A stretch of DNA of 32,000 nucleotides from an uncultured Melioribacter sp. (GCA_964539605.1 CAZIJK010000001.1:1106729-1138728); one strand, 5' to 3'; shown: positions 4,749 through 32,000, counted from the stretch's first letter. A program made the numbers and translations. The notes: generated from the sequence alone by a model not told the origin.

Positions 4749-4999
4749 AAATTCTATGAGCGGTTGTTCTATGGTTATTGATCTTTGAATAAACTCAAAG
4801 CTTTTTTGCCATATATAAAACCCGCTTACTCCAATATTTTACCTTTCGCAACTTTAATTTGGCTTTTAGTATTTATTTGTGCCATTTTAAAACCGAAAAG
4901 TGATTCAGACCACAGTTGTAATACTATTATAGAATTTATTATTAGATATCTTTGTTTTAACGGATATAAAAGTAAAAGATTTTTTTATTTGGAGAAACG

Positions 5000-5827: not shown

Positions 5828-5831
5828 TAAA

Positions 5832-8552: not shown

Positions 8553-8624
8553 AAAGTAATTTATATCTTATTTGTAATTTCTCTTAGAACTCACCAATAA
8601 TTATCTCTTCTGCCTATTTAAAAT

Positions 8625-8666
8625 TTGACTTAAATAGTGCAATAACATAAGTTGCAAACGTTTGCG
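8625..8666 (+). promoter_or_regulatory. candidate sigma70-like promoter (TTGACT-N17-TAAGTT) followed by a LacI/GalR-type palindromic operator, GCAAACGTTTGC at 8654..8665
   Basis: The perfect 12-bp palindrome with central CG at 8654..8665 (14-mer tGCAAACGTTTGCg) fits the TGnAAnCGnTTnCA operator pattern of LacI-family repressors. It lies 20 nt upstream of the LacI-family gene ATG at 8685. The -35 and -10 assignment is weak: TTGACT at 8625..8630 and TAAGTT at 8648..8653. Confidence 0.6.
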
Positions 8667-8684
8667 GGAACGTGTGTGCTAATT

Positions 8685-9692: not shown

Positions 9693-9775
9693 AAAAAATA
9701 TTGAATACATAATTAATAAGTACAATTGGTAAAAAAGTAATTAACTAAATAAAACAACTAAGTAAGGATTCCAAA

Positions 9776-11452: not shown

Positions 11453-11488
11453 AATACTTTACCAAAAAGTTTATAAGGAGAAAATAAA

Positions 11489-11704
11489 ATGAGTGAACAT
11501 AAAATGAAACCTATTTGGTTTTTTGTAGGATTAATTTTGATGATAATTGGGGGATTAATATTCATGTCTGGTATTTATCAGCTAATAGTGCCTCCAACTA
11601 AAATTACAGTACTTGGCCAAACTCATCCAAATATTTGGTGGGGATTAATTATGATGGCATTTGGTGGTGTAATGTATTTAAAAACAAAAAACCAAACAGT
11701 GTGA
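11489..11704 (+). CDS. small two-TM membrane protein of unknown function (possible symporter accessory subunit)
   Basis: 71 aa with two clear hydrophobic helices ('IWFFVGLILMIIGGLIFMSGI' and 'IWWGLIMMAFGGVMYL'). AAGGAG lies 8 nt upstream of the ATG. It is packed between the symporter (36-nt gap) and galK (7-nt gap). Confidence 0.6.
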   Translation: MSEHKMKPIWFFVGLILMIIGGLIFMSGIYQLIVPPTKITVLGQTHPNIWWGLIMMAFGGVMYLKTKNQTV

Positions 11705-11711
11705 GCTTCTA

Positions 11712-12869: not shown

Positions 12870-13921
12870 TTATGAAAGAGAATAAATTAAATATCTATCC
12901 CCATCGAAGAAAAAATATTTTAACTGGTGAATGGGTTCTGGTTAGTCCTAACAGAACCCAAAGACCCTGGCAGGGGGAAGTTGCAAATATTGAAGAAACC
13001 ATAAGAAATGAGTATGAGCCAAACTGCTATTTGTGCCCTGGAAATGTTAGGGCAAACGGGGAAGTAAATCCTAACTACAAAAACACATTTGTATTTACAA
13101 ACGATTTTTCGGCCTTGGTGCAAAGCACGCCAGATATTTCATTTAATAAAAATGATCTGCTTGTAGCCAACAGCCAACAGGGAATTTGCCGTGTTGTTAA
13201 TTTTAGCCCCAAGCATAATTTAACCTTGGCACAAATGAATGCAAAAGATATTGAAGATGTAATTACAACTTGGCAAAATGAATTTAGAAGCCTGGCCGAA
13301 AATCCAAAAATTAAATATGTACAGATTTTTGAAAACAAGGGGGGAATGATGGGTAACAGCAATCCTCATCCCCATGGACAAATTTGGGCGCAAAGCTCCA
13401 TTCCAAACGAGCCGGCTAAGGAGCTTAAAAACTTCAAGGCATATTTTAAGAAGAATAAGAAAAGCCTGCTTGAAGATTACCTTAAATTAGAGTTGAAATT
13501 AAAGGAAAGAATTGTTTATCAGAATTCCTCCTTTGTTATTTTGGTTCCATACTGGGCAGTTTGGCCATTCGAAACAATTATTATTTCCAAAAGAAAAATT
13601 GCCTCCATAATGGAATTTAATAAAACCGAAAAAAAAGATTTTGCAAAAGCTCTTAGCGTAATTACAATTAAGTACGATAACCTCTTTAAAACCTCGTTTC
13701 CTTATTCAGCCGGGTTGCATCAGGCGCCAACAGATGGAAAGCAATATCCAGCTTTTCATTTTCATATGCATTTTTATCCGCCACTGCTTCGCTCTTCTTC
13801 AATTAAAAAATTTATGGTCGGCTACGAAATGCTTGGTGAGCCTCAAAGAGATATTACACCGGAGTATAGCGCCAAAGTTCTGCTTGGTTTACCAGTTAGG
13901 CATTATAAAAAAATGTTATAG
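12866..13921 (+). CDS. galT: galactose-1-phosphate uridylyltransferase
   Basis: 'CYLCPGN' (Zn-site CxxC) and the 'NPHPHGQIWA' His-Pro-His active site. ATGA start/stop overlap with galK. An alternative ATG lies at 12872. Confidence 0.95.
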   Translation: MIMKENKLNIYPHRRKNILTGEWVLVSPNRTQRPWQGEVANIEETIRNEYEPNCYLCPGNVRANGEVNPNYKNTFVFTNDFSALVQSTPDISFNKNDLLVANSQQGICRVVNFSPKHNLTLAQMNAKDIEDVITTWQNEFRSLAENPKIKYVQIFENKGGMMGNSNPHPHGQIWAQSSIPNEPAKELKNFKAYFKKNKKSLLEDYLKLELKLKERIVYQNSSFVILVPYWAVWPFETIIISKRKIASIMEFNKTEKKDFAKALSVITIKYDNLFKTSFPYSAGLHQAPTDGKQYPAFHFHMHFYPPLLRSSSIKKFMVGYEMLGEPQRDITPEYSAKVLLGLPVRHYKKML

Positions 13922-17128
<3,207 letters not shown>

Positions 17129-17149
17129 TTACAATTAAATACTTGTTGA

Positions 17150-19174
17150 ATGATGAAAACGAATAAAAAAATATTCACTTTAGTAATTATTCTGTTAATG
17201 CTTGTTCTAAATGTTGTAGTAAATGCGCAATCAAAAAATCAATTTCTTCCTAACCGGCTGAATTATCCCGATATGCTAAATGTTAAAAACGTTCCTCTTA
17301 AGCCGGTGGATTGGAATTCATTTTTTTATTCCGACTTAGGCGCGTGGTTTGGCTTTGCATTGCCGTCGGATAGCAGCAAATCTTTTTTAGGTGGATTTAT
17401 TGGCCCCTTTTTAATTACCGAAGGAAAGTGGTTAAGCAATTCCTTTGCCCAACTTGTAATAATTGATAAAAGTACAAAGGAGCAAATTGATTTATCTAAA
17501 GCTCTTGATGTGAAGGTGAATTATTATCCAGGAATGCTTACACAAAGTTTTACCATAAAAGAATTAAGAATAGAGCTCAAACAAATATTCACTTCAAACT
17601 CAACTTCCCTTGAGCATATAAAAATTAAAAACATAGGCAAAAAACCTGTGGAAATTTCAATTGGGTTCAAAGGCAATTTGCTAATGGAAAACTCCAAATT
17701 TGTTGTCAGTCAAAATGGAATTGATGCTTTCTTTGGTAGCGGGGGAATGAAAGCGCGCTTGTCATTCAACAATAATATAGGAAAGATAAATGTGGTGAAT
17801 ATTGATTTGAAAGATTATTCCCTGATGGGAGATAATTCAATAAAAATAAATTCATCAAATGAGTTTAATACGGTCTTAGCATTTAATCTGGATATGAATG
17901 ATAAGAAGGATAGGAATATAATTCCCGAACTGCTTAATAAGCCGGAAATATTCTTTAAGAGAAATGAAAACAGATGGAACGGATACCTAAAAAAGGTTTT
18001 TGCAAATATTCGAAAAGATTTTTTTAGCAAGGAGTATTATTGCTTATCTGTAAAAGCATTGCAAACATTAATTATGAATTGGAGAAGCCCTTACGGTCAT
18101 TTAACTTACGATGGTCTCTTTCCCTCTTCGGCAATAAGTTATTTCAATGGCTTCTGGTCGTGGGATTCATGGAAGCATTCGGCCGCTCTTGCAATATTTG
18201 AACCGGAGCTAGCTAAAAATCAGATACGCGCTTTATTCCAATATCAATCGTCAAATGGAATGATACCGGATGTTATTTATGCAGATAGCTCCCAGAACAA
18301 TTGGCTGGATACAAAACCTCCTCTTGCCGCGTGGGGAGTCCAAAAGGTTTATAAGCACTCTAACGATAAATTATTTTTAAAAGAGATCTATCCAAAACTT
18401 GTTAAATATCATTACTGGTGGTATAAAGATAGAGATAACGATTCAAACGGATTGTGTGAATATGGTTCTACAGCAGATTCTTTAATTGCCGCAAAATGGG
18501 AAAGCGGAATGGATAACGCAATTCGTTTTGATGAAAGAAAATTGGTAAGGAATGGCCTTAACGCTTTTTCTATTAATTTGGAATCTGTGGATCTTAACTC
18601 GTACCTATATAAAGAAAAAATTATTCTTGCTTCGATGGCAAAACAGCTGGGATTAATTAGCCATCAATTGAAATTTGAAAATGAAGCCGAGCTTCTGAAA
18701 GAAAAAATACATGCTCGTATGTTTAATTCCTCCAGAGGATATTTTTACGATATAGATTTAGAAACTAAAAAGTATCTTAACGTTCAAGGTCCCGAAGGAT
18801 GGATTGCTTTATGGGGAAAAGTTGCAACTGATGAACAGGCAAAAAGTGTTAAAAATATTATTATGGATTCAACAAAATTTAATTCCTTCATACCTTTTTC
18901 AACGGCTGCAATAGACAACCCAAAATTAAAAGCTAATGGTTACTGGCGTGGACCGGTATGGTTAGACCAGGCTTATTTTGCAATTAAGGGATTGGCAAAT
19001 TATGGGTTTATGGAAGAATCTTTATTCTTAACAAAAAAACTATTGAAAAACGCAAAAGGTTTGTTAAACAGCAATGCTCCAATTAGAGAAAACTATAATC
19101 CAATAAATGGAGAGGGGCTCGAAGCAAATCATTTTAGCTGGTCTGCCGCTCATATTTTAATGATGCTTCACTAG
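17150..19174 (+). CDS. secreted (alpha/alpha)6-barrel glycoside hydrolase, GH63-like (YgjK/MGH1/trehalase-like clan)
   Basis: Signal peptide 'MMKTNKKIFTLVIILLMLVLNVVVNA'. Motifs 'FWSWDSWKH', 'WESGMDNA', 'VDLNSYLY', 'GYWRGPVWLDQAYF' and 'HFSWSAAHIL' are typical of GH63/GH37-type six-hairpin hydrolases. The exact family and substrate cannot be determined from sequence alone. Confidence 0.65.
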   Translation: MMKTNKKIFTLVIILLMLVLNVVVNAQSKNQFLPNRLNYPDMLNVKNVPLKPVDWNSFFYSDLGAWFGFALPSDSSKSFLGGFIGPFLITEGKWLSNSFAQLVIIDKSTKEQIDLSKALDVKVNYYPGMLTQSFTIKELRIELKQIFTSNSTSLEHIKIKNIGKKPVEISIGFKGNLLMENSKFVVSQNGIDAFFGSGGMKARLSFNNNIGKINVVNIDLKDYSLMGDNSIKINSSNEFNTVLAFNLDMNDKKDRNIIPELLNKPEIFFKRNENRWNGYLKKVFANIRKDFFSKEYYCLSVKALQTLIMNWRSPYGHLTYDGLFPSSAISYFNGFWSWDSWKHSAALAIFEPELAKNQIRALFQYQSSNGMIPDVIYADSSQNNWLDTKPPLAAWGVQKVYKHSNDKLFLKEIYPKLVKYHYWWYKDRDNDSNGLCEYGSTADSLIAAKWESGMDNAIRFDERKLVRNGLNAFSINLESVDLNSYLYKEKIILASMAKQLGLISHQLKFENEAELLKEKIHARMFNSSRGYFYDIDLETKKYLNVQGPEGWIALWGKVATDEQAKSVKNIIMDSTKFNSFIPFSTAAIDNPKLKANGYWRGPVWLDQAYFAIKGLANYGFMEESLFLTKKLLKNAKGLLNSNAPIRENYNPINGEGLEANHFSWSAAHILMMLH

Positions 19175-19587: not shown

Positions 19588-21819
19588 TTAAAACAAAAAT
19601 TTATAATTAATTTTGATGCTTCTTCCCGGCATTAGGGCAAAATCTTTAATTGCGCTTAAATGATCTCTGTAAGCTGTATTCAATATATTATCTGCCCGTA
19701 TGGTAACCATATGGAGATAACCGTAGGTCATCATCTTAACTCCAAAATATAAATCCAAAAGAGTAAAGCCGCTTGTTGCAGTCTCATATTCATTAATTGT
19801 ATTTTGAGCCCCGGTTAGTTTTAACAATACTCCTCCAAAATAATTATCATCGTTATAGCGCTGTTCAATTCCAAAACGGAAGGGGGGCATTTGTGGAATA
19901 TTTTGATTGGAAAATGAAAGCTTGCCTCTTACATAATCTGCCGTAACAGTTGTAGAAATATTTCTGCTAAATTCATATAAGGCTTTTAATTCAAATCCAT
20001 AAATCTGCGCGTCGTTTTGAACATACTTAAATACCGGCAGCCCCGTTGTTAAATTAATTTTACTCTCCTCAGATTCGGAATTGTAAAACAAATTAGTCGG
20101 CTCTCTGTAAATGTAATTGTTAAAAGAATTATAAAACGCGCTAACCTCAACGGTATGGTTAGCTTTTCTTACACGCAACCCGGCGTCTATACCAATATTA
20201 TTTTCATTACTCAATAATCTGCTACCAATATCAAAAGAGGCAGTTGCTTCATGTATTGAGTAGGAAGATAATTCCTCTATTGTGGGGGAGCGGTATGCAT
20301 TTGCTATATTGGCAAATAAAGAAATTTGGTCGCTAATGTTATAAACAAATCCAAAGCTGGCGCTAAAAGCATTAAATGTTTTTTTCTCGGCATCAAAGTC
20401 CACACCCGAAATTGTAGCTTTGGGAATATCTATGCTGTTTCTTTCAATTCGCAATCCAAGCTGAACATTAACATTATTAAATTTTGCCTGTTCAAATAAA
20501 TAGGCGGCAAATGCCGAATAGGTAGAGTTAGGTGTTAAAGCTTCTTCCCCCTCAACATTATATTTTTGATTCATTCCCCATATGCCTAAAACCCCTTGAA
20601 AAGTTTGTGCAATTAAAGCGTGCCTTAACGAAAAATCGAGGCTATAGTTTTTAAGAGCAAACGAGGTTCCAATTTCTCCGCTGGTTTTTATTATTTCCTG
20701 ATGAGAATAATCTTGATATCCCCCCTTAATACTAAAATTCTGGAACAAAGAGTTTTCAATTGAACTTTCGGCAGTAAAGCGAAATTCATCCTTCTTCATT
20801 CGAATTTCAATTGGCCCCTCTCCGTCGCCATTGCTGTTAAAAGGAATTCCATAATTGTTATTATAATTGGAATAACTTATTCCGGCGCGCCCGAAAGAGG
20901 GAATTAAAGAAATACCCATTTGATAGCCATTGCTTTCTACGCCGGTATTTAAAACCTTGGCGCCATTGCCGTCGGAATAATCACCATTTTTTCTGTCGAA
21001 GTAGTTTCCATGAAATGCCACTATTGATGCGCCGTAATGCATGTCCATACTTTTATTAATTTCATTGTTAACGCCGGAATATCCAACTTGAATATCACCA
21101 TCAATTTTTTGAGGAATGTAATTTGGAATAGCTTCGTTAATAATATTTATTACCCCTCCAATGGCATTATTTCCATATAATAAACTTGCAGGTCCCCGCA
21201 GAACTTCAACCTTTTCTGGTGAACTGCCGTCTGAAGAAACGGCATGATCGTCTGAAGAATTAGATAAATCTCCAATCCTCAATCCGTTTTCTAAAATTAA
21301 AACCCGGTTGTTGCTAAATCCTCTTATTACAGGTCGCGCAGTAGCCGAGCCGTTAGAGCGCATCGAAATACCGGGCTGAAAATTTAATAGCTGACCAATA
21401 TTGCTTACCGGATTAATTTGCATCTCCATACTGTTTATCAACAATGTACTTTGCGAAATTTGTTTTGGATCTTGAATTAATGGATTGCCGGTTACAACAA
21501 CTTCATCTAAATCCACATTGCTGTTTTCCATTACAAAATCAATTTCGGTGTCTTTAAAAATTTCAATCGACTTAACAATAGTTTTATGTCCTATGTAAGT
21601 AATCTTTATCTTGTAACTTCCCGAAGTTATATTATTAAATAAGAACTCGCCGCTATCATTTGTTTGCGTACCAATTTTAAGATCTTCCAAATAAACGTTG
21701 GCCCCAATAACAGGGTCTTTTGCTTCTATGTGAGTAACTTTCCCTTTTAACGAATAGTTCTGCGCAAGTAGTGGAACCGGAATAATAATCAGTAACAATA
21801 AAATTATTTTTTTTCTCAT
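19588..21819 (-). CDS. TonB-dependent receptor (CarboxypepD_reg + plug + 22-strand-type barrel)
   Basis: Signal peptide 'MRKKIILLLLIIIPVPLLA'. 'LKGKVTHIEAKDPVIGANVYL...GSYKIKITYIGHKT' (CarboxypepD_reg). 'LDEVVVTGNP' is TonB-box-like. Plug: 'RGFSNNRVLILENGLRIGD' and 'VEVLRGPASLLYGNNAIGGVINII'. The C-terminus 'SIKINYKFLF' ends in an aromatic residue. Confidence 0.9.
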   Translation of the reverse strand: MRKKIILLLLIIIPVPLLAQNYSLKGKVTHIEAKDPVIGANVYLEDLKIGTQTNDSGEFLFNNITSGSYKIKITYIGHKTIVKSIEIFKDTEIDFVMENSNVDLDEVVVTGNPLIQDPKQISQSTLLINSMEMQINPVSNIGQLLNFQPGISMRSNGSATARPVIRGFSNNRVLILENGLRIGDLSNSSDDHAVSSDGSSPEKVEVLRGPASLLYGNNAIGGVINIINEAIPNYIPQKIDGDIQVGYSGVNNEINKSMDMHYGASIVAFHGNYFDRKNGDYSDGNGAKVLNTGVESNGYQMGISLIPSFGRAGISYSNYNNNYGIPFNSNGDGEGPIEIRMKKDEFRFTAESSIENSLFQNFSIKGGYQDYSHQEIIKTSGEIGTSFALKNYSLDFSLRHALIAQTFQGVLGIWGMNQKYNVEGEEALTPNSTYSAFAAYLFEQAKFNNVNVQLGLRIERNSIDIPKATISGVDFDAEKKTFNAFSASFGFVYNISDQISLFANIANAYRSPTIEELSSYSIHEATASFDIGSRLLSNENNIGIDAGLRVRKANHTVEVSAFYNSFNNYIYREPTNLFYNSESEESKINLTTGLPVFKYVQNDAQIYGFELKALYEFSRNISTTVTADYVRGKLSFSNQNIPQMPPFRFGIEQRYNDDNYFGGVLLKLTGAQNTINEYETATSGFTLLDLYFGVKMMTYGYLHMVTIRADNILNTAYRDHLSAIKDFALMPGRSIKINYKFLF

Positions 21820-21968: not shown

Positions 21969-22304
21969 CTACGATATTTTAGGGGGAGCCCTTAATGAGG
22001 TGTAAAATAAATTTTGAGATTGAATGAACTTCTGGTCAACAAAATATTCAAGTAGTATAAATGAACTTTGGAATTGATAGTTATGCTGATTCAGAACAAT
22101 TGAAAAACTGCTTTGAATAAAAAAATCTAACTGACATGTATCTTTACCAAAACTAAATGGATCAGTAACATTTTGGGAACCGTATGCGGTTATCACTTCA
22201 TCATAATCAATTGAATGATTATGAGAGTGTAGAGCTACCGAAAAGAATAAAAGCGCATAGGCGGCAATTAAGGTACAACTTATATGTTTAGTAAACTTTT
22301 TCAT
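21969..22304 (-). CDS. small secreted or membrane-anchored protein with His cluster, unknown function
   Basis: I chose the internal start 'MKKFTKHISCTLIAAYALLFFSVALHSHNHS', an ATG at 22304..22302. The longer ORF-track version (to 22493) would overlap the divergent acs start. The protein has an N-terminal hydrophobic segment, an 'HSHNHS' cluster and the C-terminus 'SLRAPPKIS'. It lies upstream of the TonB-dependent receptor on the same strand. Confidence 0.5.
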   Translation of the reverse strand: MKKFTKHISCTLIAAYALLFFSVALHSHNHSIDYDEVITAYGSQNVTDPFSFGKDTCQLDFFIQSSFSIVLNQHNYQFQSSFILLEYFVDQKFIQSQNLFYTSLRAPPKIS

Positions 22305-22426
22305 TTTTAAGTGAGGCAAATATAAATTATAAAATAATTTAAGACAAACAGTCTCTTGATTTTTCTCTTTTATGCACCTAATTTGATATAGAATTAAAAT
22401 AAATTCAAAATTCAACAAGAGGACAC

Positions 22427-24319
22427 ATGGACAACAATAAATTATCGGGAGAAGTTTACTATCCATCTCAAGAAGTTTTAGATAAAGCAACAATCAAAAA
22501 CTGGGATGAGCTTAATGAGCGGGCTGCTAATAATTACGAGGCCTTTTGGGAAGAGCAGGCCGAAGAACTACACTGGTTTAAAAGATGGGATAAAGTATTA
22601 AACGAAACCGAAAAGCCATTTTATAAATGGTTCGAAGGGGGCTTAACAAATATTGCTTATAATTGCCTTGATGTTCATGTAAAAACCTTTAGAAGAAATA
22701 AACTTGCTTTAATTTGGGAAGGGGAAAATGGGGATAGTAAAACGTTCAGTTATTTTGCTCTTCACCGAGAAACTTGCCGCTTTGCAAATATTCTTAGAAG
22801 TCTTGGTGTTAAAAAAGGGGATAGAGTAACAATCTATATGGGAAGGGTTCCCGAAATTATGATTGCTATGCTTGCATGCGCTCGAATTGGTGCAATTCAT
22901 AGTGTTGTTTATGGAGGTTTTTCGGTTGAGTCGCTAGCCGAAAGAATTGAAGACAGCAACTCAAAAGTTCTAATAGTTTCCGATGGCGCATATCAAAGAG
23001 GTAAGATTGTTCCTTTAAAACAAATTGCAGATGAAGCTCTGCAACGCTGCGGTACTGTTGAGCATGTTCTTGTAGTTAAAAGAACCGGTGTGGAAGTTAA
23101 CATGGAATTTGGAAGAGACATGTGGTACCACGAACTGATTAATCTTCCAATTGCCTCTAAAGAATGCGCACTCGAAAAGATGGATGCAGAAGATCCTTTG
23201 TTTATTCTTTACACTTCGGGTACTACCGGTAAACCAAAGGCTATTCTTCATACTCATGGGGGATACATGGTTGGTACATACACATCGTTAAAATATGTTT
23301 TCGATATTAAGGAAGAGGATAGATATTGGTGCGCAGCAGATCCGGGATGGATTACCGGGCACAGTTATATTGTTTATGGTCCTTTGTTAAATGGAACAAC
23401 ATCTTTCATGTACGAAGGAGCTCCTAATTTCCCATATCCTAACCGCTGGTGGCAAATGATTGAAAAGTATGGAATAAATATTCTTTACACGGCGCCAACT
23501 GCAATTAGGGGATTGATGCGCTTTGGAGAATCTTGGGTTAACCGTCACGATCTTTCCTCTTTACGTTTGTTAGGATCTGTTGGAGAGCCAATTAATCCGG
23601 AAGCGTGGCGTTGGTACAGCAAAGTTGTAGGAAGAGAGAAATGCCCAATAATGGATACTTGGTGGCAAACCGAGACAGGCATGTTTATGATTACTCCAAT
23701 GCCCTGCGTGCCTCTTAAACCGGGATCCGGGACTAAACCATTCCCTGGAATTGTAATGGATGTTGTGGATGATCATGGTAATAGTGTAAAACCAAACGAG
23801 GAGGGATTTTTAATTATTAAAACACCTTGGCCCGCAATGATAAGAACAGTTTACAAAGATCCCGAAAGATATATTCAGCAGTATTGGTCTAAATATCCCG
23901 GCTATTATTTAACCGGAGATAGTGTTAGAAGAGATGAAGATGGATATTTTTGGATTATAGGAAGAGTTGATGATGTTATAAAGGTTAGCGGCTACCGCTT
24001 AGGTACTGCCGAAATTGAAAGCGCTTTAGTTAGTCATTCTTCCGTTGCCGAGGCAGCTGCAATTGGTTTGCCCCACGAAGTAAAAGGAAATGCAATTTAC
24101 GCTTATGTAATTCTTAAAAACGGAATTGCAAAAAGTACAACATTGGTCGAAGAACTTCGTCAGCATGTAAGCCACGAGGTTGGACCAATTGCAAAACCGG
24201 AACATATTGAAATTGTTGAAAGCCTTCCTAAAACTAGATCGGGAAAAATTATGAGAAGAGTTCTTAAGGCTAGGGCATTGGGGCAAGACCCGGGAAATAT
24301 TTCTACCTTAGAGGAATAG
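22427..24319 (+). CDS. acs: acetyl-CoA synthetase (AMP-forming)
   Basis: 'YTSGTTGKPKA' AMP-binding motif, 'WWQTETG', 'YYLTGD' and 'PKTRSGKIMRR' (C-terminal catalytic/acetylatable Lys motif). Length 630 aa, with a typical Acs N-terminus 'FWEEQAEELHWFKRWDKVL'. Confidence 0.95.
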   Translation: MDNNKLSGEVYYPSQEVLDKATIKNWDELNERAANNYEAFWEEQAEELHWFKRWDKVLNETEKPFYKWFEGGLTNIAYNCLDVHVKTFRRNKLALIWEGENGDSKTFSYFALHRETCRFANILRSLGVKKGDRVTIYMGRVPEIMIAMLACARIGAIHSVVYGGFSVESLAERIEDSNSKVLIVSDGAYQRGKIVPLKQIADEALQRCGTVEHVLVVKRTGVEVNMEFGRDMWYHELINLPIASKECALEKMDAEDPLFILYTSGTTGKPKAILHTHGGYMVGTYTSLKYVFDIKEEDRYWCAADPGWITGHSYIVYGPLLNGTTSFMYEGAPNFPYPNRWWQMIEKYGINILYTAPTAIRGLMRFGESWVNRHDLSSLRLLGSVGEPINPEAWRWYSKVVGREKCPIMDTWWQTETGMFMITPMPCVPLKPGSGTKPFPGIVMDVVDDHGNSVKPNEEGFLIIKTPWPAMIRTVYKDPERYIQQYWSKYPGYYLTGDSVRRDEDGYFWIIGRVDDVIKVSGYRLGTAEIESALVSHSSVAEAAAIGLPHEVKGNAIYAYVILKNGIAKSTTLVEELRQHVSHEVGPIAKPEHIEIVESLPKTRSGKIMRRVLKARALGQDPGNISTLEE

Positions 24320-24348
24320 AACAATTTTTATTTAGAGTTGTTTTAACT

Positions 24349-24386
24349 AAGCCCGCTATGGATAATAATTCCTAGCGGGCTTTTTA
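24349..24386 (+). terminator. Rho-independent terminator downstream of acs
   Basis: AAGCCCGCT (24349..24357) pairs with AGCGGGCTT (24374..24382), a GC-rich 9-bp stem, followed by a T5 run. Confidence 0.7.
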
Positions 24387-24512
24387 CTGACTAATTGTTT
24401 TGAGTAAATTTACAATAATAAAAATAGTGTATAAATTATTGTACTTTATAAATGTAAATAGTCTCTTAATTTGTTTACGCATTTAACCACTCAGAAGGAA
24501 ATCTAAAACAAG

Positions 24513-26747
24513 ATGTTACAAGACAAAAAAGTTTTTATTGTCGCGGCATTTTTCCTCTTCAGTTCAATTATTTTTGCTCAGGAATTTGGAACATTAAGAG
24601 GGCTAGTTAGCGATTCCACATCCTCCGAAGCTTTGTCTTATTGCAATGCTTATATCAAAGAGTTAGGAAAAGGTGCTAATTCCGATTCCCGTGGGTATTT
24701 TTTAATCCCGGGCATTCCTCTTAATAAAGATTACACTCTTATAGTTTCTTATGTTGGTTACAGAACTAAATATATTCCCATTCGATTAAAAACTACAAAG
24801 GTTACCCAGTACAACATTGCATTAACTTCAACAGATATTCAGTATAAAACAATTGAGCAGACTGCAAAAAGAGTTACCGAAACAAACGAAACCAATATTA
24901 GCATACAAAGAATTTCTCCTAAGTATTTGGAATCTATTCCCAAAGGTGTGGAAACAGATGTTTTTCGATCTATTAAATACTTGGCCGGTGTGCAATCCAC
25001 CGGAGATGTTTCTGCAAAATATTATGTGCGCGGCGGCGCAAGCAATCAAAATTTAGTTCTCGTTGATGGAATAACAATTTACAATCCCTTTCATGCATTG
25101 GGATTATTCAGCGTTGTAGATCCGGATGTTGTTAACAGCATAGATTTTTACAAAGGGGGATTCGGAGCCCAATTTGGAGGAAGACTTTCATCTGTTATGA
25201 TGATTAATACAAAAGATGGAAACAGAAATAAATTTGGCAGTAAAGTTGGGCTGAGTTTACTCTCTACAAAATTATTAGTCGAAGGGCCTATACCAAACGG
25301 TTCATTCATTATTTCGGGAAGAAAGAGTTACTCAAACGAAATAACTAAAAAATTTCTGAACGAAAAAAGTGTTCCATTGGATTTTTACGACTTCTCTTTC
25401 AAAGCCAATTATGCCAATCCCAATTTTATAGAGGGAGCTAAATTTTCGGTAAACGGATTTGTAAGTAACGATAATTTATTTAGCAGCGATCCTTTGGTGG
25501 AAGATTATAAATGGTCCAACAATACATTTGGTTTCAAATGGTTTCAGGTAGGTGATGTTCCTCTGTTTTTTGAAATTGGTGTAACTGCCAGCTCTTTTAA
25601 GGGGGATAGAATTCCCAAATTCAGCGGAGTTTTTGAACTGAGTAATAAAGTTGAAGACATTGGAATCAATATGAATTTTACCTACATGTTCGAAACAAGG
25701 GATGAAATTAATATTGGATTTAATATTCGAAAAATATCTACTCAGCTAAATTTAGAAAATGCTGTTGGCGATCCAATTAAAGTTAATTCTTCCGGAACAA
25801 ACATTATTCTTTTTGGCCGTTATAATTTTCTTCAAATCGATCAGGTTAAATTCGATATCGGCGCGCGCTTAAATCTTATTTCAATTTCGCAAAGCGATAA
25901 AAAAATAAATTTTGAACCACGTCTTAATTTGTCTTACAAATTGCTCGAAGGACTTGTTCTTAAGAGCGCTTTCGGAATTTATCAGCAGGAGCTTACCACT
26001 TTAACAAACGAAAACGAAGTTATAAATATTTTTGAACCTTGGGTTGTTACACCTAATTATTTACCCCCTTCAAAATCTGTTCATTATATAGCCGGCATGG
26101 ATATAAGCTTGTTCGACAATCTTACAATTAATTTGGAAGGCTACTATAAAGATTCGAAAAATTTGGCAATACTTAACCAGAATAAAGTGTTTGTAAACGA
26201 TCAGGATTTTATTGTTAGCGACAGCGAATCTTCGGGATTAGAAATATCTTCACATCTGGATATGAATGTTTTTGCTTTTAATCTTGCTTACGCATATTCT
26301 CATTCCTACCGCAAATTAAACGACAAAATATTTTATCCCAAATATGATGTTAGGCACAGCTTAAACCTTTCGGTAGATTTGGATATTGGCTACGGATGGA
26401 CTGCAAGCACTGTTTGGGTTTATTCATCGGGACTTCCCTTTACTCAAATTATTGGCTATTACGATAAATATTATTTCAACAATTTTTTTACTACCTGGGA
26501 TAAAAACGATCCAAGAAGACCTTACACAATTCTTGGCGTTCAAAATTTGGGAAGACTACCCGATTATCACCGTTTGGATTTTACTGTTTCCAAAAAATTT
26601 AGACTTGAGCCATTTGGCTTTGACCTTAGCTTTAGTATTATTAATGCATACGACAGAAAAAACATTTTTTACTTTAAACGAGATACGGGGGAAAGAGTAA
26701 ATATGCTTCCATTTTTACCAAGTGCAACAGTTCGAGTTGAATTATGA
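24513..26747 (+). CDS. TonB-dependent-receptor-like outer-membrane protein (CarboxypepD_reg + plug + barrel), of the type usually paired with DUF4249 lipoproteins
   Basis: Signal peptide 'MLQDKKVFIVAAFFLFSSIIFA'. 'LRGLVSDSTSSEALSYCNAYIKEL...DYTLIVSYVGYRT' (CarboxypepD_reg). Plug: 'VFRSIKYLAGVQSTGDVSAKYYVRGGASNQNLVLVDGITIYNPFHALGLFSVVD' and 'FYKGGFGAQFGGRLSSVMMINTKDG'. Barrel-like C-terminal part. ATGA overlap with the next gene. Confidence 0.85.
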   Translation: MLQDKKVFIVAAFFLFSSIIFAQEFGTLRGLVSDSTSSEALSYCNAYIKELGKGANSDSRGYFLIPGIPLNKDYTLIVSYVGYRTKYIPIRLKTTKVTQYNIALTSTDIQYKTIEQTAKRVTETNETNISIQRISPKYLESIPKGVETDVFRSIKYLAGVQSTGDVSAKYYVRGGASNQNLVLVDGITIYNPFHALGLFSVVDPDVVNSIDFYKGGFGAQFGGRLSSVMMINTKDGNRNKFGSKVGLSLLSTKLLVEGPIPNGSFIISGRKSYSNEITKKFLNEKSVPLDFYDFSFKANYANPNFIEGAKFSVNGFVSNDNLFSSDPLVEDYKWSNNTFGFKWFQVGDVPLFFEIGVTASSFKGDRIPKFSGVFELSNKVEDIGINMNFTYMFETRDEINIGFNIRKISTQLNLENAVGDPIKVNSSGTNIILFGRYNFLQIDQVKFDIGARLNLISISQSDKKINFEPRLNLSYKLLEGLVLKSAFGIYQQELTTLTNENEVINIFEPWVVTPNYLPPSKSVHYIAGMDISLFDNLTINLEGYYKDSKNLAILNQNKVFVNDQDFIVSDSESSGLEISSHLDMNVFAFNLAYAYSHSYRKLNDKIFYPKYDVRHSLNLSVDLDIGYGWTASTVWVYSSGLPFTQIIGYYDKYYFNNFFTTWDKNDPRRPYTILGVQNLGRLPDYHRLDFTVSKKFRLEPFGFDLSFSIINAYDRKNIFYFKRDTGERVNMLPFLPSATVRVEL

Positions 26748-27712
26748 AAAATGCGCTATTAGTTTTATTTATTATGATACTAACATTTTCCTGCGAAGAA
26801 AATTTTAATCCCTACGGAGGTTTTAAAGAGAGATATATTTTAACTTGCATTCTTCGCGGAGATACAACATTTCAAACTGCATACTTAACCAAAACTTATA
26901 GTGTTAATAATTACGATCCCTATTCGTATGTTAACGATGTGCATGTTAAAGGGGCGCTGATTCGTGTATGGAACGGGGATTCCATTAATGTCTTTAGAGA
27001 TACTTCGGTTCAAAGAGCTCCAAATTCAAAATACACCTCTCCTAATTCTCTTTACTATACCAAAAATTTTAAGATTAACACCGAAAAACTTGTTGAAATA
27101 GAAGCAGTACTTCCGGATGGAAAAAGATTATCCTCCAGTTCACTTCCCCCTAGACCTATTAAACTGCAATACCTCGAAAAATCAATTCCTGCAAAAATCG
27201 GAAGCAATATTAAATTTACCTGGGATGCCGGAGACAGAAAACAATCTTTTGTTTCAAAGCTTTCTATCTTTTATGTAAAACACGAGGGGGGAAAAGAGCT
27301 TTTTAATCAAATTCAAATTCCTATGCAGTATGTTGCTTCGGGTAATAACAGTGTTCCAATTTATCCTCAGCCTTCAAACAGTAATTCTTTTGTTGCAGAT
27401 ATTGCAACGGTTGATAAAACAATGGAATTAATTTCGGCCGGCGATAGCGATAAAAGCAAATATGAAATTCTTTCCGCATTTTTAGAAATTATTGCTTTCG
27501 ATGCCAACCTTAGCGCTTATTTTAATGCAACAAGCCGAAGTTCCGATTCCTATTCGGTTAAATTGGATGAAACAGATTATTCCAACATAGATTATGCTTA
27601 TGGAGTTTTTGGAGTTTTCTTAAAAGAAAATTTCAATATCCCAATTACCGGACCATATATTAGGGGGTTTGGATATAAGCCGGGGCCTAGTGTTATAGAT
27701 TTTCCTTTGTAG
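26744..27712 (+). CDS. lipoprotein, DUF4249-like (partner of the upstream receptor), function unknown
   Basis: Lipoprotein signal 'MKNALLVLFIMILTFSC' followed by acidic 'EEN'. About 320 aa and predicted beta-rich. Position, size and N-terminal pattern ('ERYILTCILRGDTTFQTAYLTKTY', 'VKGALIRVWNGDS') match my recollection of the DUF4249 family found next to such receptors. Not verified by HMM. Confidence 0.6.
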   Translation: MKNALLVLFIMILTFSCEENFNPYGGFKERYILTCILRGDTTFQTAYLTKTYSVNNYDPYSYVNDVHVKGALIRVWNGDSINVFRDTSVQRAPNSKYTSPNSLYYTKNFKINTEKLVEIEAVLPDGKRLSSSSLPPRPIKLQYLEKSIPAKIGSNIKFTWDAGDRKQSFVSKLSIFYVKHEGGKELFNQIQIPMQYVASGNNSVPIYPQPSNSNSFVADIATVDKTMELISAGDSDKSKYEILSAFLEIIAFDANLSAYFNATSRSSDSYSVKLDETDYSNIDYAYGVFGVFLKENFNIPITGPYIRGFGYKPGPSVIDFPL

Positions 27713-27759
27713 GTATTTATATAATTATGTTAATTCTCAAAAGGACTTGTTAATTAGTT

Positions 27760-29217
27760 ATGAAAAAAAATTTTTATATAATCTTTTTATCTCTATCACT
27801 GTTTCTTTTATCCTGCGAAAAGGAAGTGTTCACTTCTATTGTAGAACCTGCAAATTATGCTATAGGTAAAATGCTGGTCGAAACTAATCCATCCGGATTT
27901 AATATTTATGTAGATAATAAAAATATGGGTTTAAAAACTCCGGATACTGTTAAGTGGCTTTTGCCAGGTCAACGTAAACTCACAATAAAAAACGAACTTT
28001 ACCCAGATACCTCAATTAATCTGAATGTATCGGAAGTTTCTTTAACAAAAGTAAAAATTGATGTTACTCTTAATCCCCGGTTCTATGCAAAACTTTATTT
28101 AAAGTCCAACCCAAATGCTTCTAGAGTATCTCTAAACGGTAAGCCAACTAATTTTATAACTCCAGCTTATTTAACAAGTTTAACACCTGGCAATTATAAA
28201 ATTACATTCTCAAAAAATGAATGCAGAAGCGACAGCGTTACACTTAAAATTAAAGGGGGAATGTGGACCGAATATGTAATGGAACTTGAAGACACATCAA
28301 ACGCGGTAGATTACCGTATCAAAAATTCTAAAATAATTAGCGACTATCTTTTATGTGTTCTAGTTGACAACAACAATATTAAATGGATCGGTTCTTCTGA
28401 TAAAGGATTATTCAGTTACGATGGAAAAGTATTCACCTCCTACAGCAATTATATTCCAAGCAACAGAATAAACCATTTATTCTTGGACAGTAAAAACCGA
28501 ATGTGGATTTCTACAAGCACCGGATTATATTATAAAGAGGGAAATAGTTTTAACAGCTTTGATGTTAAGTTGGCAAATAAATATATAACATATGTAAACG
28601 AAGATAAATTGGGTAATATTTGGATATGTACAACAGATGGTCTTTTCATATTCGAGAATAATATTCTTAAAGAAATCGACACTCACAACTCTTCTATTGT
28701 TTATAAAAGTTTTAGCTGTATTGTCTTCGATAAAAATAACAAGGCTTGGATCGGTACAGATTATTATCAGCTTGTTTCTTATTATAAAGGTTCATGGGTA
28801 CTTGAAAGCATAGCCTCACAGGAGGAATTGCCTGAAGGGTTGGGGCCTAGTGTTAGTTCGGTAATAGTGAATTCAAACCAAAATATTTTGGCATTTGTCT
28901 ATGGAGATCCACGTAATTCGGCGGCCAATAAGCTCATTCAATTCGATCCAACAAAATCATCATGGTCAGTATTCGATCTTAAACAGCAATTCCCAATTCA
29001 AATTGTATCGATGAAGCTCGATTCTAATAACGACTTATGGGCTAGTTCCAAGGAAGGTCTTTTAAGGTACAGCAATATAAAAGCACCAATTCTGTTTAAC
29101 ACTTACGATTACAGCTTTTATTCAAAATATTGCACCGGTTCGCATATGGATAAAAATAAAATTGTTTGGGTTACTACTATGGGAGGGGGATTAATAAAAT
29201 TAAAAAAAGGATTTTAG
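27760..29217 (+). CDS. lipoprotein with two PEGA domains and a seven-blade Reg_prop-type (two-component-regulator propeller) beta-propeller; no output domain
   Basis: Lipobox 'LFLLSC'. PEGA-like: 'LVETNPSGFNIYVDNKNMGLKTPDTVKWLLPGQRKLTIKNELY' and 'LYLKSNPNASRVSLNGKPTNFITPAYLTSLTPGNYKITFSKNE'. Repeats of about 40 aa: 'VDNNNIKWIGSSDKGLFSYDG', 'DSKNRMWISTSTGLYY', 'EDKLGNIWICTTDGLFIF', 'DKNNKAWIGTD', 'DSNNDLWASSKEGLLRY' and 'DKNKIVWVTTMGGGLIKL'. Confidence 0.75.
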   Translation: MKKNFYIIFLSLSLFLLSCEKEVFTSIVEPANYAIGKMLVETNPSGFNIYVDNKNMGLKTPDTVKWLLPGQRKLTIKNELYPDTSINLNVSEVSLTKVKIDVTLNPRFYAKLYLKSNPNASRVSLNGKPTNFITPAYLTSLTPGNYKITFSKNECRSDSVTLKIKGGMWTEYVMELEDTSNAVDYRIKNSKIISDYLLCVLVDNNNIKWIGSSDKGLFSYDGKVFTSYSNYIPSNRINHLFLDSKNRMWISTSTGLYYKEGNSFNSFDVKLANKYITYVNEDKLGNIWICTTDGLFIFENNILKEIDTHNSSIVYKSFSCIVFDKNNKAWIGTDYYQLVSYYKGSWVLESIASQEELPEGLGPSVSSVIVNSNQNILAFVYGDPRNSAANKLIQFDPTKSSWSVFDLKQQFPIQIVSMKLDSNNDLWASSKEGLLRYSNIKAPILFNTYDYSFYSKYCTGSHMDKNKIVWVTTMGGGLIKLKKGF

Positions 29218-29330
29218 TTATAAGAAAAAATGAAAAATAAAATTTCTGACCAGTTCTAAATGGTATTCTCATATTTTTTGCATATAAATTGTTGAGTAAA
29301 TAATTTTAACATATACATAAGGCCGGCAAT

Positions 29331-30818
29331 ATGAAAAATTGTTTAGGCAAAAATATTATTTATTCCCTTTTTGTTTTTTTATTACAAATCCTTGCAAACT
29401 CCTGCAAGTTAGATGTCACTCAAGAAATTCCAGAGCCTCTTTATCCAATTGCCAGCTATAAAATATTTATTAAAACAAATCCTGCAGGCTTTTCGGTTTT
29501 TTTAGATAATAAAAACATGGGTATTAATACCCCGGACACTATTAGATCTGTTACCGATGGAATTCACAGACTTGTTTTAAAACATCCCTATTTTATAGAC
29601 ACATTGATGAATATTAATACATCCTTAACAAAGAGTATATATGTAGACCTTTTAGAAAAAGAGGAAATGATGAGTTCCTTATTTGTTAACTCTATTCCAA
29701 TTGGGGCCAATATATATTACGATGGCAAAGATATAAGTAAAAAAACTCCAATTACATTGCGCGGATTGATGCCAGGAGTTCATAACCTTAAACTAACTGC
29801 AAACAGATGTCGGGATGACAGTGTGGAAGTTAAATTATATTCAAAAACCATGGCTCAGGTTACAGTTGAACTCGATGATACAACTTATGTAATTGTATAT
29901 AACACAAAAAATTCAACCATTATTTCCAATTCACTAAAAAAAATTGTTGTTGATATAGACAATACAATATGGATCGCTTCTGTAGATAAAGGATTGTTCA
30001 CTCATAAAAACCAAGTATTCACCCAAGTACGTTCTTTGGCAATTTTAAGTAATTCTGTTATTAACGACTTGTTGATTGATACAAAACATAAAAGACTTTG
30101 GGTTGCAACATCTTCCGGCTTAGCAATGTTTGATGGTGTTAAATGGACTCAGTTTGCCGAAGATTTTTTAGCTACTAGTATTACGGCCCTTGCCGAAGAT
30201 AAATTTGGGAATATTTTTGTAGGTACAAATAAAGGATTGGCAAAACTTAATAATTCATCATGGCAATTATTTAGCAAAGAGCAGGGAACAATTCCGGCAA
30301 ACGACATAACATGCATTACAATTGATAATTACAATAACATTTGGGTAGGCACTTCAAGTTTAGGTGCATTGATGCACAATGGAATAATTTGGCAGGTGTT
30401 CGACAATGCAAGCGGAATATTTCAAGAACTGTTTGTCGGCACCGCACAAATCTCAAATTACGTTCAGTCAATTTCGTACGATAAGTTTAACGAAGCCATT
30501 TATATTTACTTTAAAATATTTCCGAAAGATGAGGCTAAAGCTCTTGTGGCTAAGTATCAATTAAAAACTTGGTCGGTTTATTATCCATCTATTTTACCAA
30601 TCGATTTGGAAAATTTCTTTTTTTATAGTCCACAAACGTATTGGGAATTAAATGTTGAAAGCGGGGCAGTTAGAATAACGGCAGATGGATTACGAAAGTA
30701 CTACAATAAATCTAATACAAGATTGCTAGCAAATCATTTTACTTCTGCTGCAAAAGATTTGCAGGGAGATCTTTGGTTTACTACAATGGGGGGAGGTTTA
30801 ATGAAGTTAAAATATTAA
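29331..30818 (+). CDS. paralogous lipoprotein: two PEGA domains plus a seven-blade Reg_prop-type beta-propeller
   Basis: Colinear with 27760..29217. 'IKTNPAGFSVFLDNKNMGINTPDT' matches 'VETNPSGFNIYVDNKNMGLKTPDT'. Blades: 'DIDNTIWIASVDKGLF', 'DTKHKRLWVATSSGLAMF', 'EDKFGNIFVGTNKGLAKL' and 'DNYNNIWVGTSSLG'. The C-terminal 'DLWFTTMGGGLMKLKY' matches 'IVWVTTMGGGLIKLKKGF'. Probable lipobox 'ILANSC'. Confidence 0.75.
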   Translation: MKNCLGKNIIYSLFVFLLQILANSCKLDVTQEIPEPLYPIASYKIFIKTNPAGFSVFLDNKNMGINTPDTIRSVTDGIHRLVLKHPYFIDTLMNINTSLTKSIYVDLLEKEEMMSSLFVNSIPIGANIYYDGKDISKKTPITLRGLMPGVHNLKLTANRCRDDSVEVKLYSKTMAQVTVELDDTTYVIVYNTKNSTIISNSLKKIVVDIDNTIWIASVDKGLFTHKNQVFTQVRSLAILSNSVINDLLIDTKHKRLWVATSSGLAMFDGVKWTQFAEDFLATSITALAEDKFGNIFVGTNKGLAKLNNSSWQLFSKEQGTIPANDITCITIDNYNNIWVGTSSLGALMHNGIIWQVFDNASGIFQELFVGTAQISNYVQSISYDKFNEAIYIYFKIFPKDEAKALVAKYQLKTWSVYYPSILPIDLENFFFYSPQTYWELNVESGAVRITADGLRKYYNKSNTRLLANHFTSAAKDLQGDLWFTTMGGGLMKLKY

Positions 30819-30843
30819 TTCAGCATTGCGAAATAATTCCTAA

Positions 30844-32000
30844 TTAGTTTATCAAGTAATCGAGCTGAATATTCAAACGGTTATCTTTGTTGCCATTAAT
30901 CAGGTTATCGCCGCTTCCTAAAAACTTTTCATCCGGCTTATAAAGTTCGGAATATTTTAATGATAGGCTTAAACCAATAGGGAATGAATATTTTGCCATC
31001 AAATACCATCTTAACCCAACTCCATACAAAGGGGTATTTGTAACTATTCCTGCCAAATCATTTTCGAATTCATATACTCTGGATAAGTAGGAGTCGGTTT
31101 TAAAATAAATTATCCTTCCATAAACGTTAATGTGTTCCCCATATGAGTATCTAACATCCTGAAAACACAAAAATCCATATTCATTTGTACTTGTAAAATT
31201 TGTTTTAACCAGTTCAAACCTTGAGCGAAGATTAATATCTTTGAAAAGGGTATGCTGGTACTCTCCTCTAATGTTTTGCTTAGATAAGTTTGATAATATA
31301 TTTATCCCTTCAACTTTTGTCTCCTCTTCGCTCAATTCATATTTATATTTTACATTAATGCTGTTTTGCCCCTTTAACTTAAGAGTGTAGTTCAACAAAA
31401 AATCGTATCCATTAGAACTGAAAGGCAGCTTTTGACTGGTCGAGAATTTTTTATATTGGTCAAAGTAAAAGTTAAAATTGCCGAATGCGGTTGTTACTTT
31501 TGCACCTAAATAAAAACCCTCTTCATTTTGTGGGTGCGAGCTTTCTCCAAATGCGCCCGAGTGATTATTCCAATAATCCCTTCCATAATTTCTATAAGAA
31601 AAAATTATAGACATATTCTTGCTTAAGTAGATATCCAAAGTATTAAGAGTGGCTAGGCTATTCTTGTAAAATGAGGTTTCCCCAGTAATGTTTAACTTGC
31701 CAACATTAGCCGAATAACCGGAAGATAAATAGCTAAAGCTGTTTTCCATTTCCCGTAATGCAAAGTCACTTTCAAAATTATAGTTATAAGTGGAATTGTA
31801 ATAAAGCAATCCAACAGAGCCGATATTAAAATTATATTTAAGTGCCGAGCCAAATAGCCGTTCGGTCACCTTATCTTTTTTACTCTTTTCATTTTCGCTT
31901 CTATGATAGCCATCAACAAATAACGAGGTAATGCTTTGAGTCCAAGGATCTAAATTGGCATCCAAATATCGGTATGAATAAAATGTGTTCAAGGTAAAAC
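30844..32000 (-). CDS. hypothetical protein, C-terminal part with beta-barrel-like composition; 5' end beyond the window
   Basis: The reading frame stays open to the right window edge; the ORF-track start at 31992 is a TTG with sense codons upstream. The sequence is rich in Y/N/S/F with alternating hydrophobic pattern ('LKYNFNIGSVGLLYY', 'FNFYFDQYKKF', 'LSLSLKYSELY', 'RLNIQLDYLIN'), consistent with an OM barrel. I did not recognise a family. Confidence 0.45.
   Translation of the reverse strand, partial: FTLNTFYSYRYLDANLDPWTQSITSLFVDGYHRSENEKSKKDKVTERLFGSALKYNFNIGSVGLLYYNSTYNYNFESDFALREMENSFSYLSSGYSANVGKLNITGETSFYKNSLATLNTLDIYLSKNMSIIFSYRNYGRDYWNNHSGAFGESSHPQNEEGFYLGAKVTTAFGNFNFYFDQYKKFSTSQKLPFSSNGYDFLLNYTLKLKGQNSINVKYKYELSEEETKVEGINILSNLSKQNIRGEYQHTLFKDINLRSRFELVKTNFTSTNEYGFLCFQDVRYSYGEHINVYGRIIYFKTDSYLSRVYEFENDLAGIVTNTPLYGVGLRWYLMAKYSFPIGLSLSLKYSELYKPDEKFLGSGDNLINGNKDNRLNIQLDYLIN

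Follow-up and report, generated by a model that had tools for sequence, protein, structure and literature searches.

We analysed a 32,000-nucleotide (nt) stretch of DNA, referred to here as the window, from an uncultured Melioribacter sp. (GCA_964539605.1, CAZIJK010000001.1:1106729-1138728), and focused on a block of four co-directional plus-strand genes between positions 24513 and 30818. The first gene, assigned from the open reading frame (ORF) call and Pfam, encodes a TonB-dependent receptor (TBDR; 24513-26747, 744 amino acids (aa)). It is followed by a gene for a DUF4249-family lipoprotein, a putative extracellular lid (26744-27712, 322 aa; Pfam and AlphaFold2 (AF2)), and by two genes for lipoproteins that combine PEGA domains with a beta-propeller: propeller A (27760-29217, 485 aa; Pfam, AF2 and Foldseek) and its paralog, propeller B (29331-30818, 495 aa; Pfam and blastp). 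The receptor stop and the DUF4249 start share ATGA, read directly in the sequence as ...GAA TTA TGA AAA, so that the two genes are translationally coupled; the gaps after the DUF4249 gene and after propeller A measure 47 and 113 nt. On the left, the block is bounded by the intrinsic terminator of acs (gene at 22427-24319), which occupies 24349-24387 on the plus strand and consists of a 13-pair interrupted hairpin (24349-24382) followed by U5. RNA folding gave this hairpin a free energy of -21.4 kcal/mol (z = -6.4), and 0 of 200 shuffled sequences folded as well. On the right, outside the module, a convergent minus-strand ORF of ~382 aa (30844-31992), for which no Pfam family was found, lies 25 nt past the last stop. 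Within the four-gene block there was no convincing plus-strand terminator, the single scan match, in the receptor coding sequence, being at chance level, and Pfam and NCBIfam scans of the four genes returned no enzyme, regulator or inner-membrane transporter. A preliminary description of this DNA had proposed the same boundaries, the coupled ATGA overlap and the same lack of enzymes, regulators and transporters, and all three hold.

The receptor begins with a signal peptide (aa 1-22, cleaved between IFA and QEF), followed by an N-terminal CarboxypepD_reg-like domain (aa 27-111, nt 24591-24845; CarbopepD_reg_2 match, 1.9e-14) and a plug domain (aa 125-224, nt 24885-25184; Plug PF07715, E = 7e-12, 46 bits against a cut-off of 23.9), as had been called beforehand. 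Across 100 homologs the plug is the most conserved part of the protein (0.82), and the plug motif SAKYYVRGGASNQNL, previously read as the mark of a receptor subfamily, is at least 90% conserved. The receptor has more than 2,349 homologs, the top 120 of which are 50-62% identical to it. The SusC family model TIGR04056 was not matched in the NCBIfam scan of the receptor. The C-terminus (window 26700-26747) follows a pattern conserved in the receptor family, ...MLPFLP(S/T)AT-x-(K/R)VEL, and ends in Leu, as opposed to the aromatic residue usual in outer-membrane barrels.

The second protein has a signal peptide with its lipobox Cys at position 17, giving a mature N-terminus C-E-E-N-F. Its match to DUF4249 (PF14054) covers 252 of 269 profile positions and falls just short of the gathering score (E = 7e-6, 26.2 bits against 28.5). 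Because 33 of 37 aligned homologs match PF14054, with a best value of 3e-13, we consider the window protein a divergent member of the DUF4249 family, in line with the earlier call; its 87 homologs are named 'DUF4249 family protein' at NCBI. The AF2 model (mean predicted local distance difference test score (pLDDT) 86.3) consists of two tandem beta-sandwich domains. No close relative was found in the PDB by sequence or fold, only weak tandem fibronectin type III- or immunoglobulin-like matches with TM scores of 0.2-0.3. The protein has no SusD Pfam match and is predicted to be all-beta, so the statement that the partner of this receptor is not SusD-like stands. Price, Deutschbauer & Arkin proposed that the DUF4249 protein BT2173 forms the lid of the non-SusC TonB-dependent transporter (TBDT) BT2172 of B. 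thetaiotaomicron, on the basis of AlphaFold-Multimer contacts, cofitness in randomly barcoded transposon sequencing (RB-TnSeq) and conservation across dozens of genera (bioRxiv 10.1101/2023.03.17.533168; PLoS One 2024, PMC11003636). The fast.genomics paper by the same authors reports that this TBDT subfamily lies nearly always beside a DUF4249 gene, again in dozens of genera. By analogy with this pair, the DUF4249 lipoprotein of the window would be the extracellular lid of its receptor. The suggestion that the role of the DUF4249 component had not been established, and that the module as a whole was undescribed, was therefore overstated.

Both large lipoproteins contain two PEGA domains (1e-15 to 1e-18) and a Reg_prop region (1e-16) according to Pfam, well above the family cut-offs: PEGA (PF08308) scores 56.7 and 67 bits in two stretches each (cut-off 20.8), and Reg_prop (PF07494) scores 56.6 and 58.1 bits (cut-off 20.4). 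In propeller A, the lipobox Cys19 opens the conserved motif CEKEVFTS (nt 27814-27837), followed by PEGA1 (aa 36-101, nt 27865-28062), PEGA2 (aa 110-175, nt 28087-28284) and a 7-bladed Reg_prop propeller (aa 182-481, nt 28303-29202), with which the protein ends. The AF2 model (pLDDT 87.8) reveals two beta-sandwiches and seven four-stranded blades with velcro closure, in which the N-terminal strand closes the propeller; the earlier count of seven blades is thus correct. PEGA1 and PEGA2 are homologous to each other (hhalign, 99.3%). Propeller B, with its lipobox at Cys25 and a deviant mature N-terminus (C-K-L-D-V-T-Q-E), has the same domain architecture and is 32% identical to A over 493 columns (blastp, E = 1e-66).

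Using Foldseek, we identified the sensor propellers of the Bacteroides hybrid two-component systems (HTCS) BT4663 (heparin), BT4673 and BT3049 as the top structural matches of propeller A (E ~1e-14), followed by PorZ; virginiamycin B lyase is also in the list. A phmmer search of PDB sequences retrieved 4a2l and 3v9f at 1e-20. Assignment of the window proteins to HTCS sensors themselves was rejected, as they have one propeller and no PF07495, kinase or receiver matches. PorZ (NF052228), a component of the type IX secretion system (T9SS), was likewise set aside: the matches, of 51 and 47 bits against a cut-off of 260, cover repeats only, there is no Por_Secre_tail, and each protein has one propeller where PorZ has two. 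BtuG and XusB (DUF4374) are absent from the Pfam and NCBIfam output of both propeller proteins and from the top 50 Foldseek PDB hits. The invariant residues in the propeller family alignment form a repeated structural D/W/G motif. No conserved catalytic-looking set was found in that alignment, and an enzymatic role was rejected on this ground. The possibility that the PEGA domains mimic the periplasmic N-terminal domain of the receptor was rejected as well, the hhalign probability being 1-2%. Full-text literature searches found nothing on PEGA-propeller lipoproteins associated with TBDTs, and these proteins appear not to have been described previously. The claim of novelty thus appears to survive for the propeller lipoproteins and fails for the receptor-DUF4249 pairing. 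An exhaustive propeller profile search was dominated by multi-propeller proteins, with at least 33 full-length, single-stretch representatives of 50%-identity clusters in the top 150; these carry generic public names and point to Ignavibacteria-type metagenome-assembled genomes (MAGs). Five proteins of 886-2,320 aa (P0245, P0250, P0282, P0308 and P0327) combine many PEGA-PEGA profile matches with propeller repeats and can be described as multi-PEGA/multi-propeller giants.

To assess conservation of the module, we annotated 14 species-genome loci and further contigs encoding homologs (labelled L001-L027) with custom hidden Markov models on six-frame translations. The order TBDR, DUF4249 and then one to five PEGA-PEGA-propeller lipoproteins was found in 23 modules from ~20 Ignavibacteria loci, and the homologs carry the names Ignavibacteriales or Melioribacter. 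The class Ignavibacteria falls within the Bacteroidota of GTDB. A DUF4249 gene adjoins a co-directional non-SusC TBDT in all 25 of the pairs examined, the 4-nt overlap between the two genes recurs in 12 of 14 complete triplets, and the gaps between DUF4249 and propeller genes range from -4 to +47 nt. Hundreds of homologs in a maintained gene order lie far beyond chance. The four-gene unit proposed earlier therefore holds as a conserved order, with a gene number that is not fixed. The neighbourhoods of the modules are unrelated and include acs/citF-citE-prpD-acn, chemotaxis (che), LolCDE-like and nadA/nadC genes, a mobile-looking region, and a TetR-RND (resistance-nodulation-division) efflux system. 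Tandem modules are present in L001, L011, L024 and the ERZ27297709 contig, and one MAG (GCA_001804605.1) carries at least three modules. Given these unrelated surroundings and the tandem and multi-copy occurrence, the triplet behaves as an autonomous duplicating unit and not as inherited synteny. The acs/citF-citE-prpD-acn frame and a ZnuD-like TBDR were considered as functional links to the module. Both are absent in L001, L023, L024, L026 and L027 and are kept in closer relatives only, so functional linkage was rejected. The c9-c27 genes downstream of some modules form a separate TetR and RND efflux operon.

Individual loci depart from the common layout. Five consecutive propeller paralogs follow one receptor-lid pair in L014 (3806-11455), where one propeller is split into two ORFs (8463-9200 and 9182-9964) by either a frameshift pseudogene or an assembly error, and an additional propeller copy lies upstream of the receptor in L027. 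L005 contains, in the region 1635-3926, a solo PEGA-propeller gene directly after a gene for a 234-aa protein with a weak, sub-cut-off TonB_C match (E = 4e-4) and before a gene for a CBM9/DUF5916 outer-membrane protein. The same TonB-like family (c24) occurs just upstream of the receptor in L017 (upstream of 789). In L020 (2350-5596), from Melioribacter sp. OK-6-Me, the interval between acs and the receptor gene encodes a PAS histidine kinase together with a sigma-54-dependent response regulator, plus a secreted protein of 138 aa; these may form a lineage-specific regulator of the module.

The components of the module differ in their divergence. Identity to the window proteins declines from 58% for the barrel and 44% for the DUF4249 protein to 34 and 30% for the propellers. 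Within the propeller, the loops of the putative top face (B-C and D-A loops, assigned from the topology that propellers generally follow) score lower in conservation than the bottom loops (0.46 versus 0.57, p = 0.002). Distance matrices of the components are correlated, with Mantel r values of 0.88 for receptor and DUF4249, 0.74 for DUF4249 and propeller, and 0.62 for receptor and propeller.

The region upstream of the receptor gene (24388-24512, plus strand) is AT-rich and contains the promoter/5' region of the module, with nested inverted repeats. The outer repeat pairs 24408-24422 with 24445-24459 (ATTTACAATAATAAA/TTTATAAATGTAAAT), and the inner, perfect repeat has the form TACAATAAT-N15-ATTATTGTA (24411-24443). 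The nested repeats (24408-24459) could serve as an operator; no counterpart was seen upstream of divergent modules. Sigma-70-like promoter matches upstream of the module were no commoner than in shuffled sequences. Inspection by eye of the upstream regions of 22 modules, with no formal motif search, revealed no operator or promoter motif shared across divergent modules and no evident Fur/Zur-like box; close orthologs alone have a common, generic TTTG...TAnnTT-like promoter pattern. No riboswitch was found, an Rfam E-value scan of 24200-31000 having returned one chance snoRNA match only.

All three non-barrel proteins have a signal peptide that ends in a lipobox Cys. Nearly all members of the propeller family share the motif C-[ED]-K-[ED]-V-[FY]-T-G at this Cys, and conservation along the protein peaks (0.74) in the 8-9 residues that follow the lipid-modified Cys. 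The optimum for lipoprotein export to the surface is C-X-K-(D/E)2-X in C. canimorsus, and the consensus in F. johnsoniae is SDDFE; periplasm-facing outer-membrane lipoproteins of C. canimorsus have no conserved residues after the Cys (PMC5080379). The propeller motif C-E-K-E-V-F, where position +3 is K and position +4 is acidic, partly fits the former, and the DUF4249 N-terminus C-E-E-N-F resembles the latter. From these N-termini we infer a surface location for the propeller lipoproteins.

Taken as one operon, the four genes in our judgement probably encode a three-tier outer-membrane module for nutrient capture and import. In this proposal, the TonB-dependent, non-SusC receptor would form the gated channel (tier 1), and the translationally coupled DUF4249 lipoprotein would cap its extracellular face as a lid or substrate-binding protein, as in BT2172/BT2173-type pairs (tier 2). 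The third tier would consist of the one to five accessory lipoproteins, two in the window, lipid-anchored through their conserved N-terminus, with the two PEGA beta-sandwiches acting as a 'stalk' that holds the HTCS-sensor-type 7-bladed propeller off the membrane. The propellers could then serve as surface ligand-capture heads that concentrate substrate and pass it to the lidded receptor, while paralog number and sequence would diversify specificity. That the components associate physically and that the propeller binds ligand is what this arrangement would predict. The comparison of the propellers with SusE/F-type surface binding proteins, drawn in the preliminary description, is plausible in view of the export signal-like N-terminus, the stalk-plus-head architecture and the fastest divergence among the three components. 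As to the substrate, we lean, with considerable doubt, towards a soluble glycan or other organic oligomer over a single micronutrient, because the nearest relatives of the propellers sense oligosaccharides and because the module is multi-copy and diversifies like polysaccharide utilisation loci (PULs).

Several points weigh against this proposal. Surface exposure, complex formation and ligand binding enter it as predictions. The ~500-aa region after the plug, taken to be the barrel, does not match PF00593, which is present in some close homologs, and its weak OMP_b-brl_4 match (18 bits) lies below the 30-bit cut-off. The TonB box is a candidate only (YKTIEQTA, aa 111-118), within a segment (aa 109-120, IQYKTIEQTAKR; family consensus I-x-L-Q-T-I-E-K-I-G-E-R) that departs from the classical TonB-box consensus. 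Exposure of the propellers at the surface is deduced from rules for the lipoprotein export signal (LES) that were established for Bacteroidia and Flavobacteriia only, not Ignavibacteria, and paralog B (C-K-L-D-V) is a poorer LES-like fit. HTCS propellers are natively periplasmic, so that a periplasmic site retains some, if low, probability here. The Mantel correlations are confounded by shared phylogeny. In L011, which carries two tandem modules (3679-15918), the propellers of the two are 55% identical, the barrels 44% and the lids 33%; propellers more alike than barrels and lids disfavour strict one-to-one specificity, and suggest propeller exchange or gene conversion between the modules. The distant receptor-DUF4249 pairs of L021 and L022 (receptors 45-47% identical) lack a propeller, which makes the propeller accessory and not essential to the pair. 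Finally, in contrast to PULs, the ~20 loci have no carbohydrate-active enzyme (CAZyme), regulator or inner-membrane transporter as a consistent neighbour, and this weakens the glycan guess.

The lack of adjacent CAZymes, together with the small substrates of other TBDTs with alternative lids, favours a different ligand for the same architecture. The module could be a micronutrient relay for a small molecule in short supply (a metal chelate, cofactor or vitamin, for example), with the propellers as high-affinity scavengers comparable to BtuG/BtuH/BtuJ or XusB. We regard this as rather unlikely, although all substrates known for TBDTs that have alternative (non-SusD) lids are small (Price et al.), BtuG and XusB are themselves propeller lipoproteins that partner TBDTs, and many genomes carry the module near a ZnuD-like TBDR and/or ZnuABC. 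That zinc-gene proximity is gone in the same five loci that lack the ZnuD-like TBDR and the acs frame. Furthermore, neither a riboswitch nor a recognisable metal-regulator box lies upstream, the propellers have no sequence similarity to BtuG or DUF4374, and several divergent modules per genome with one to five divergent propellers exceed the apparent need for a single micronutrient.

The position of the propellers relative to the outer membrane is the second point at which the proposal can be challenged. They could be periplasmic accessories whose lipid anchor sits in the outer membrane's inner leaflet or in the inner membrane, binding substrate after the receptor for hand-off or retention, or else HTCS-derived sensors without an output. 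Their nearest relatives, BT4663, BT4673 and BT3049, sense ligands in the periplasm, neither a periplasmic binding protein nor an inner-membrane transporter is part of the module, and the rules for surface export come from classes other than Ignavibacteria. We nevertheless consider a periplasmic role improbable: the strongly conserved acidic and K(+3) motif after the Cys resembles surface export signals, unlike the periplasm-facing lipoproteins of C. canimorsus with their variable post-Cys residues; the propellers evolve faster and vary more in copy number than the other components, as is typical of exposed proteins; and hhalign gave no profile similarity between the PEGA domains and the periplasmic N-terminal domain of the receptor.

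PEGA domains occur in S-layer-type proteins, and this, the weak NCBIfam PorZ matches, the Foldseek matches to PorZ and virginiamycin B lyase, relatives with faint SGL matches and the solo copy away from any receptor in L005 could speak for an unrelated surface function merely sharing the operon (adhesins, PorZ-like S-layer or envelope assembly factors, or Vgb-lyase/SGL-lactonase-type enzymes), but we find this very unlikely, because the PorZ scores are far below cut-off and the proteins, with their single propeller, lack a T9SS C-terminal domain, invariance is confined to the structural repeat motif, and the slot right after DUF4249 is kept, with overlapping or near-zero gaps, in 23 modules from unrelated contexts, which argues for a function linked to the receptor.

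The three-tier module resembles several known systems in part. In both the module and the published BT2172/BT2173 pair, the gene for a non-SusC TBDT whose N-terminus is CarboxypepD_reg-like directly precedes a co-directional DUF4249 lipoprotein gene, and this adjacency is conserved across many genera (10.1101/2023.03.17.533168; PMC11003636). The published pair is two-component, with no PEGA-propeller partner mentioned, whereas the Ignavibacteria clade adds one to five propellers. Sus utilisomes (White et al., Nature 2023, PMC7618045) combine a TonB-dependent barrel, a lipoprotein lid and surface lipoproteins in which a beta-sandwich stalk carries a distal binding domain, an organization that is here predicted from genes, and they too are multi-copy and diversified within a genome. 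In the module, however, a non-SusC barrel is paired with an all-beta DUF4249 protein as lid in place of the alpha-helical SusD, a Reg_prop propeller takes the place of the CBM-like domain as accessory head, and neither a glycoside hydrolase nor a regulator is encoded in the locus. The Bacteroides BtuB-BtuG(-BtuH/BtuJ) relay and the XusA-XusB system for siderophore piracy likewise pair a TBDT with surface 7-bladed-propeller lipoproteins (PMC10404256, PMC6143338, PMC13616437, PMC13142918), and in the Btu system several lipoproteins, including BtuH and BtuJ in the cobamide relay, pass the ligand on to the transporter (PMC13616437). There, the propeller is the lid; in the window, the lid would be DUF4249 and the propeller an extra, stalked component that resembles neither BtuG nor DUF4374 in sequence, and a B12 riboswitch is absent. 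The closest relatives of the propellers in both sequence and structure are the HTCS sensor domains (BT4663, BT4673, BT3049; PDB: 4a2l, 3ott, 3v9f), ligand-binding, oligosaccharide-sensing propellers that are likewise built from Reg_prop repeats. HTCS proteins have two propellers, a YYY domain, a transmembrane segment and kinase, receiver and AraC outputs, whereas the proteins described here have one propeller, a lipid anchor, two PEGA domains and no signalling output. We put forward, more tentatively, that the propellers may constitute a new surface ligand-capture family, in which a sensor propeller of the HTCS type would have been co-opted as the extracellular head on a lipid-anchored stalk, in a three-tier complex with a DUF4249-lidded receptor. 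Such a complex could be an Ignavibacterial, non-Sus counterpart of the utilisome, multi-copy, tandemly duplicating and diversifying for many substrates.

Around the module, the window contains further outer-membrane genes. The convergent ORF at the right boundary of the module has an outer-membrane beta-barrel-like sequence, and its homologs in L012 and L016 lie further downstream, past the citF-citE-prpD-acn cluster, which suggests that this cluster was lost from, or moved within, the window genome. To the left of acs, a ZnuD/heme-type TonB-dependent receptor is encoded on the minus strand (19588-21819; best NCBIfam match ZnuD, 241 bits, below cut-off), with a small ORF containing an HSHNH motif upstream of it (21969-22493, minus strand). 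This receptor (c8) and a small ORF after it recur next to acs in L016 and L019; in L013 and L015 they lie directly upstream of the module, and ZnuABC is found nearby in another relative. A 947-aa outer-membrane protein (1905-4748, plus strand) with a CarboxypepD_reg-like N-terminus and an OMP_b-brl_3 barrel has no Plug match and resembles a plugless TBDR.

Carbohydrate genes occupy much of the remaining window. A plus-strand galactose/lactose utilisation cluster (8652-19174) encodes a LacI-family regulator, an SSF sodium:solute symporter, GalK and GalT, together with a beta-galactosidase of glycoside hydrolase family 2 (GH2) and a GH63/YgjK-like hydrolase. In other genomes, the cluster and the module are unlinked. 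At the left end, two adjacent plus-strand ORFs (107-1060 and 1088-1750) match C-terminal parts of GH2 beta-galactosidases (Glyco_hydro_2_C, LacZ_4), with Bgal_small_N positions 3-55 and then 83-248. They look like one GH2 gene, split or interrupted by a frameshift, that starts outside the window, and an intact GH2 LacZ paralog is present at 13955-17128.

Lipoprotein-lidded TonB-dependent uptake is the main nutrient-acquisition strategy of the Bacteroidota/FCB (Fibrobacterota-Chlorobiota-Bacteroidota) group, and mechanistic knowledge of it comes almost wholly from SusCD, BtuBG and XusAB. DUF4249-lidded receptors are a large family, with more than 2,300 barrel homologs recovered here, and one clade of it always carries one to five extra propellers. 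Since these propellers are related to oligosaccharide sensors and can be screened as recombinant proteins, they offer a handle on the substrate, and because cultured strains, among them Melioribacter sp. OK-6-Me and Ez-97 and strain 4148-Me (loci L020 and L023), carry the module, the system is experimentally tractable. If the proposed architecture is correct, the module would represent a second, independent 'utilisome-like' multi-lipoprotein assembly outside the Sus paradigm and may serve as an example of a sensor domain recruited to transport.

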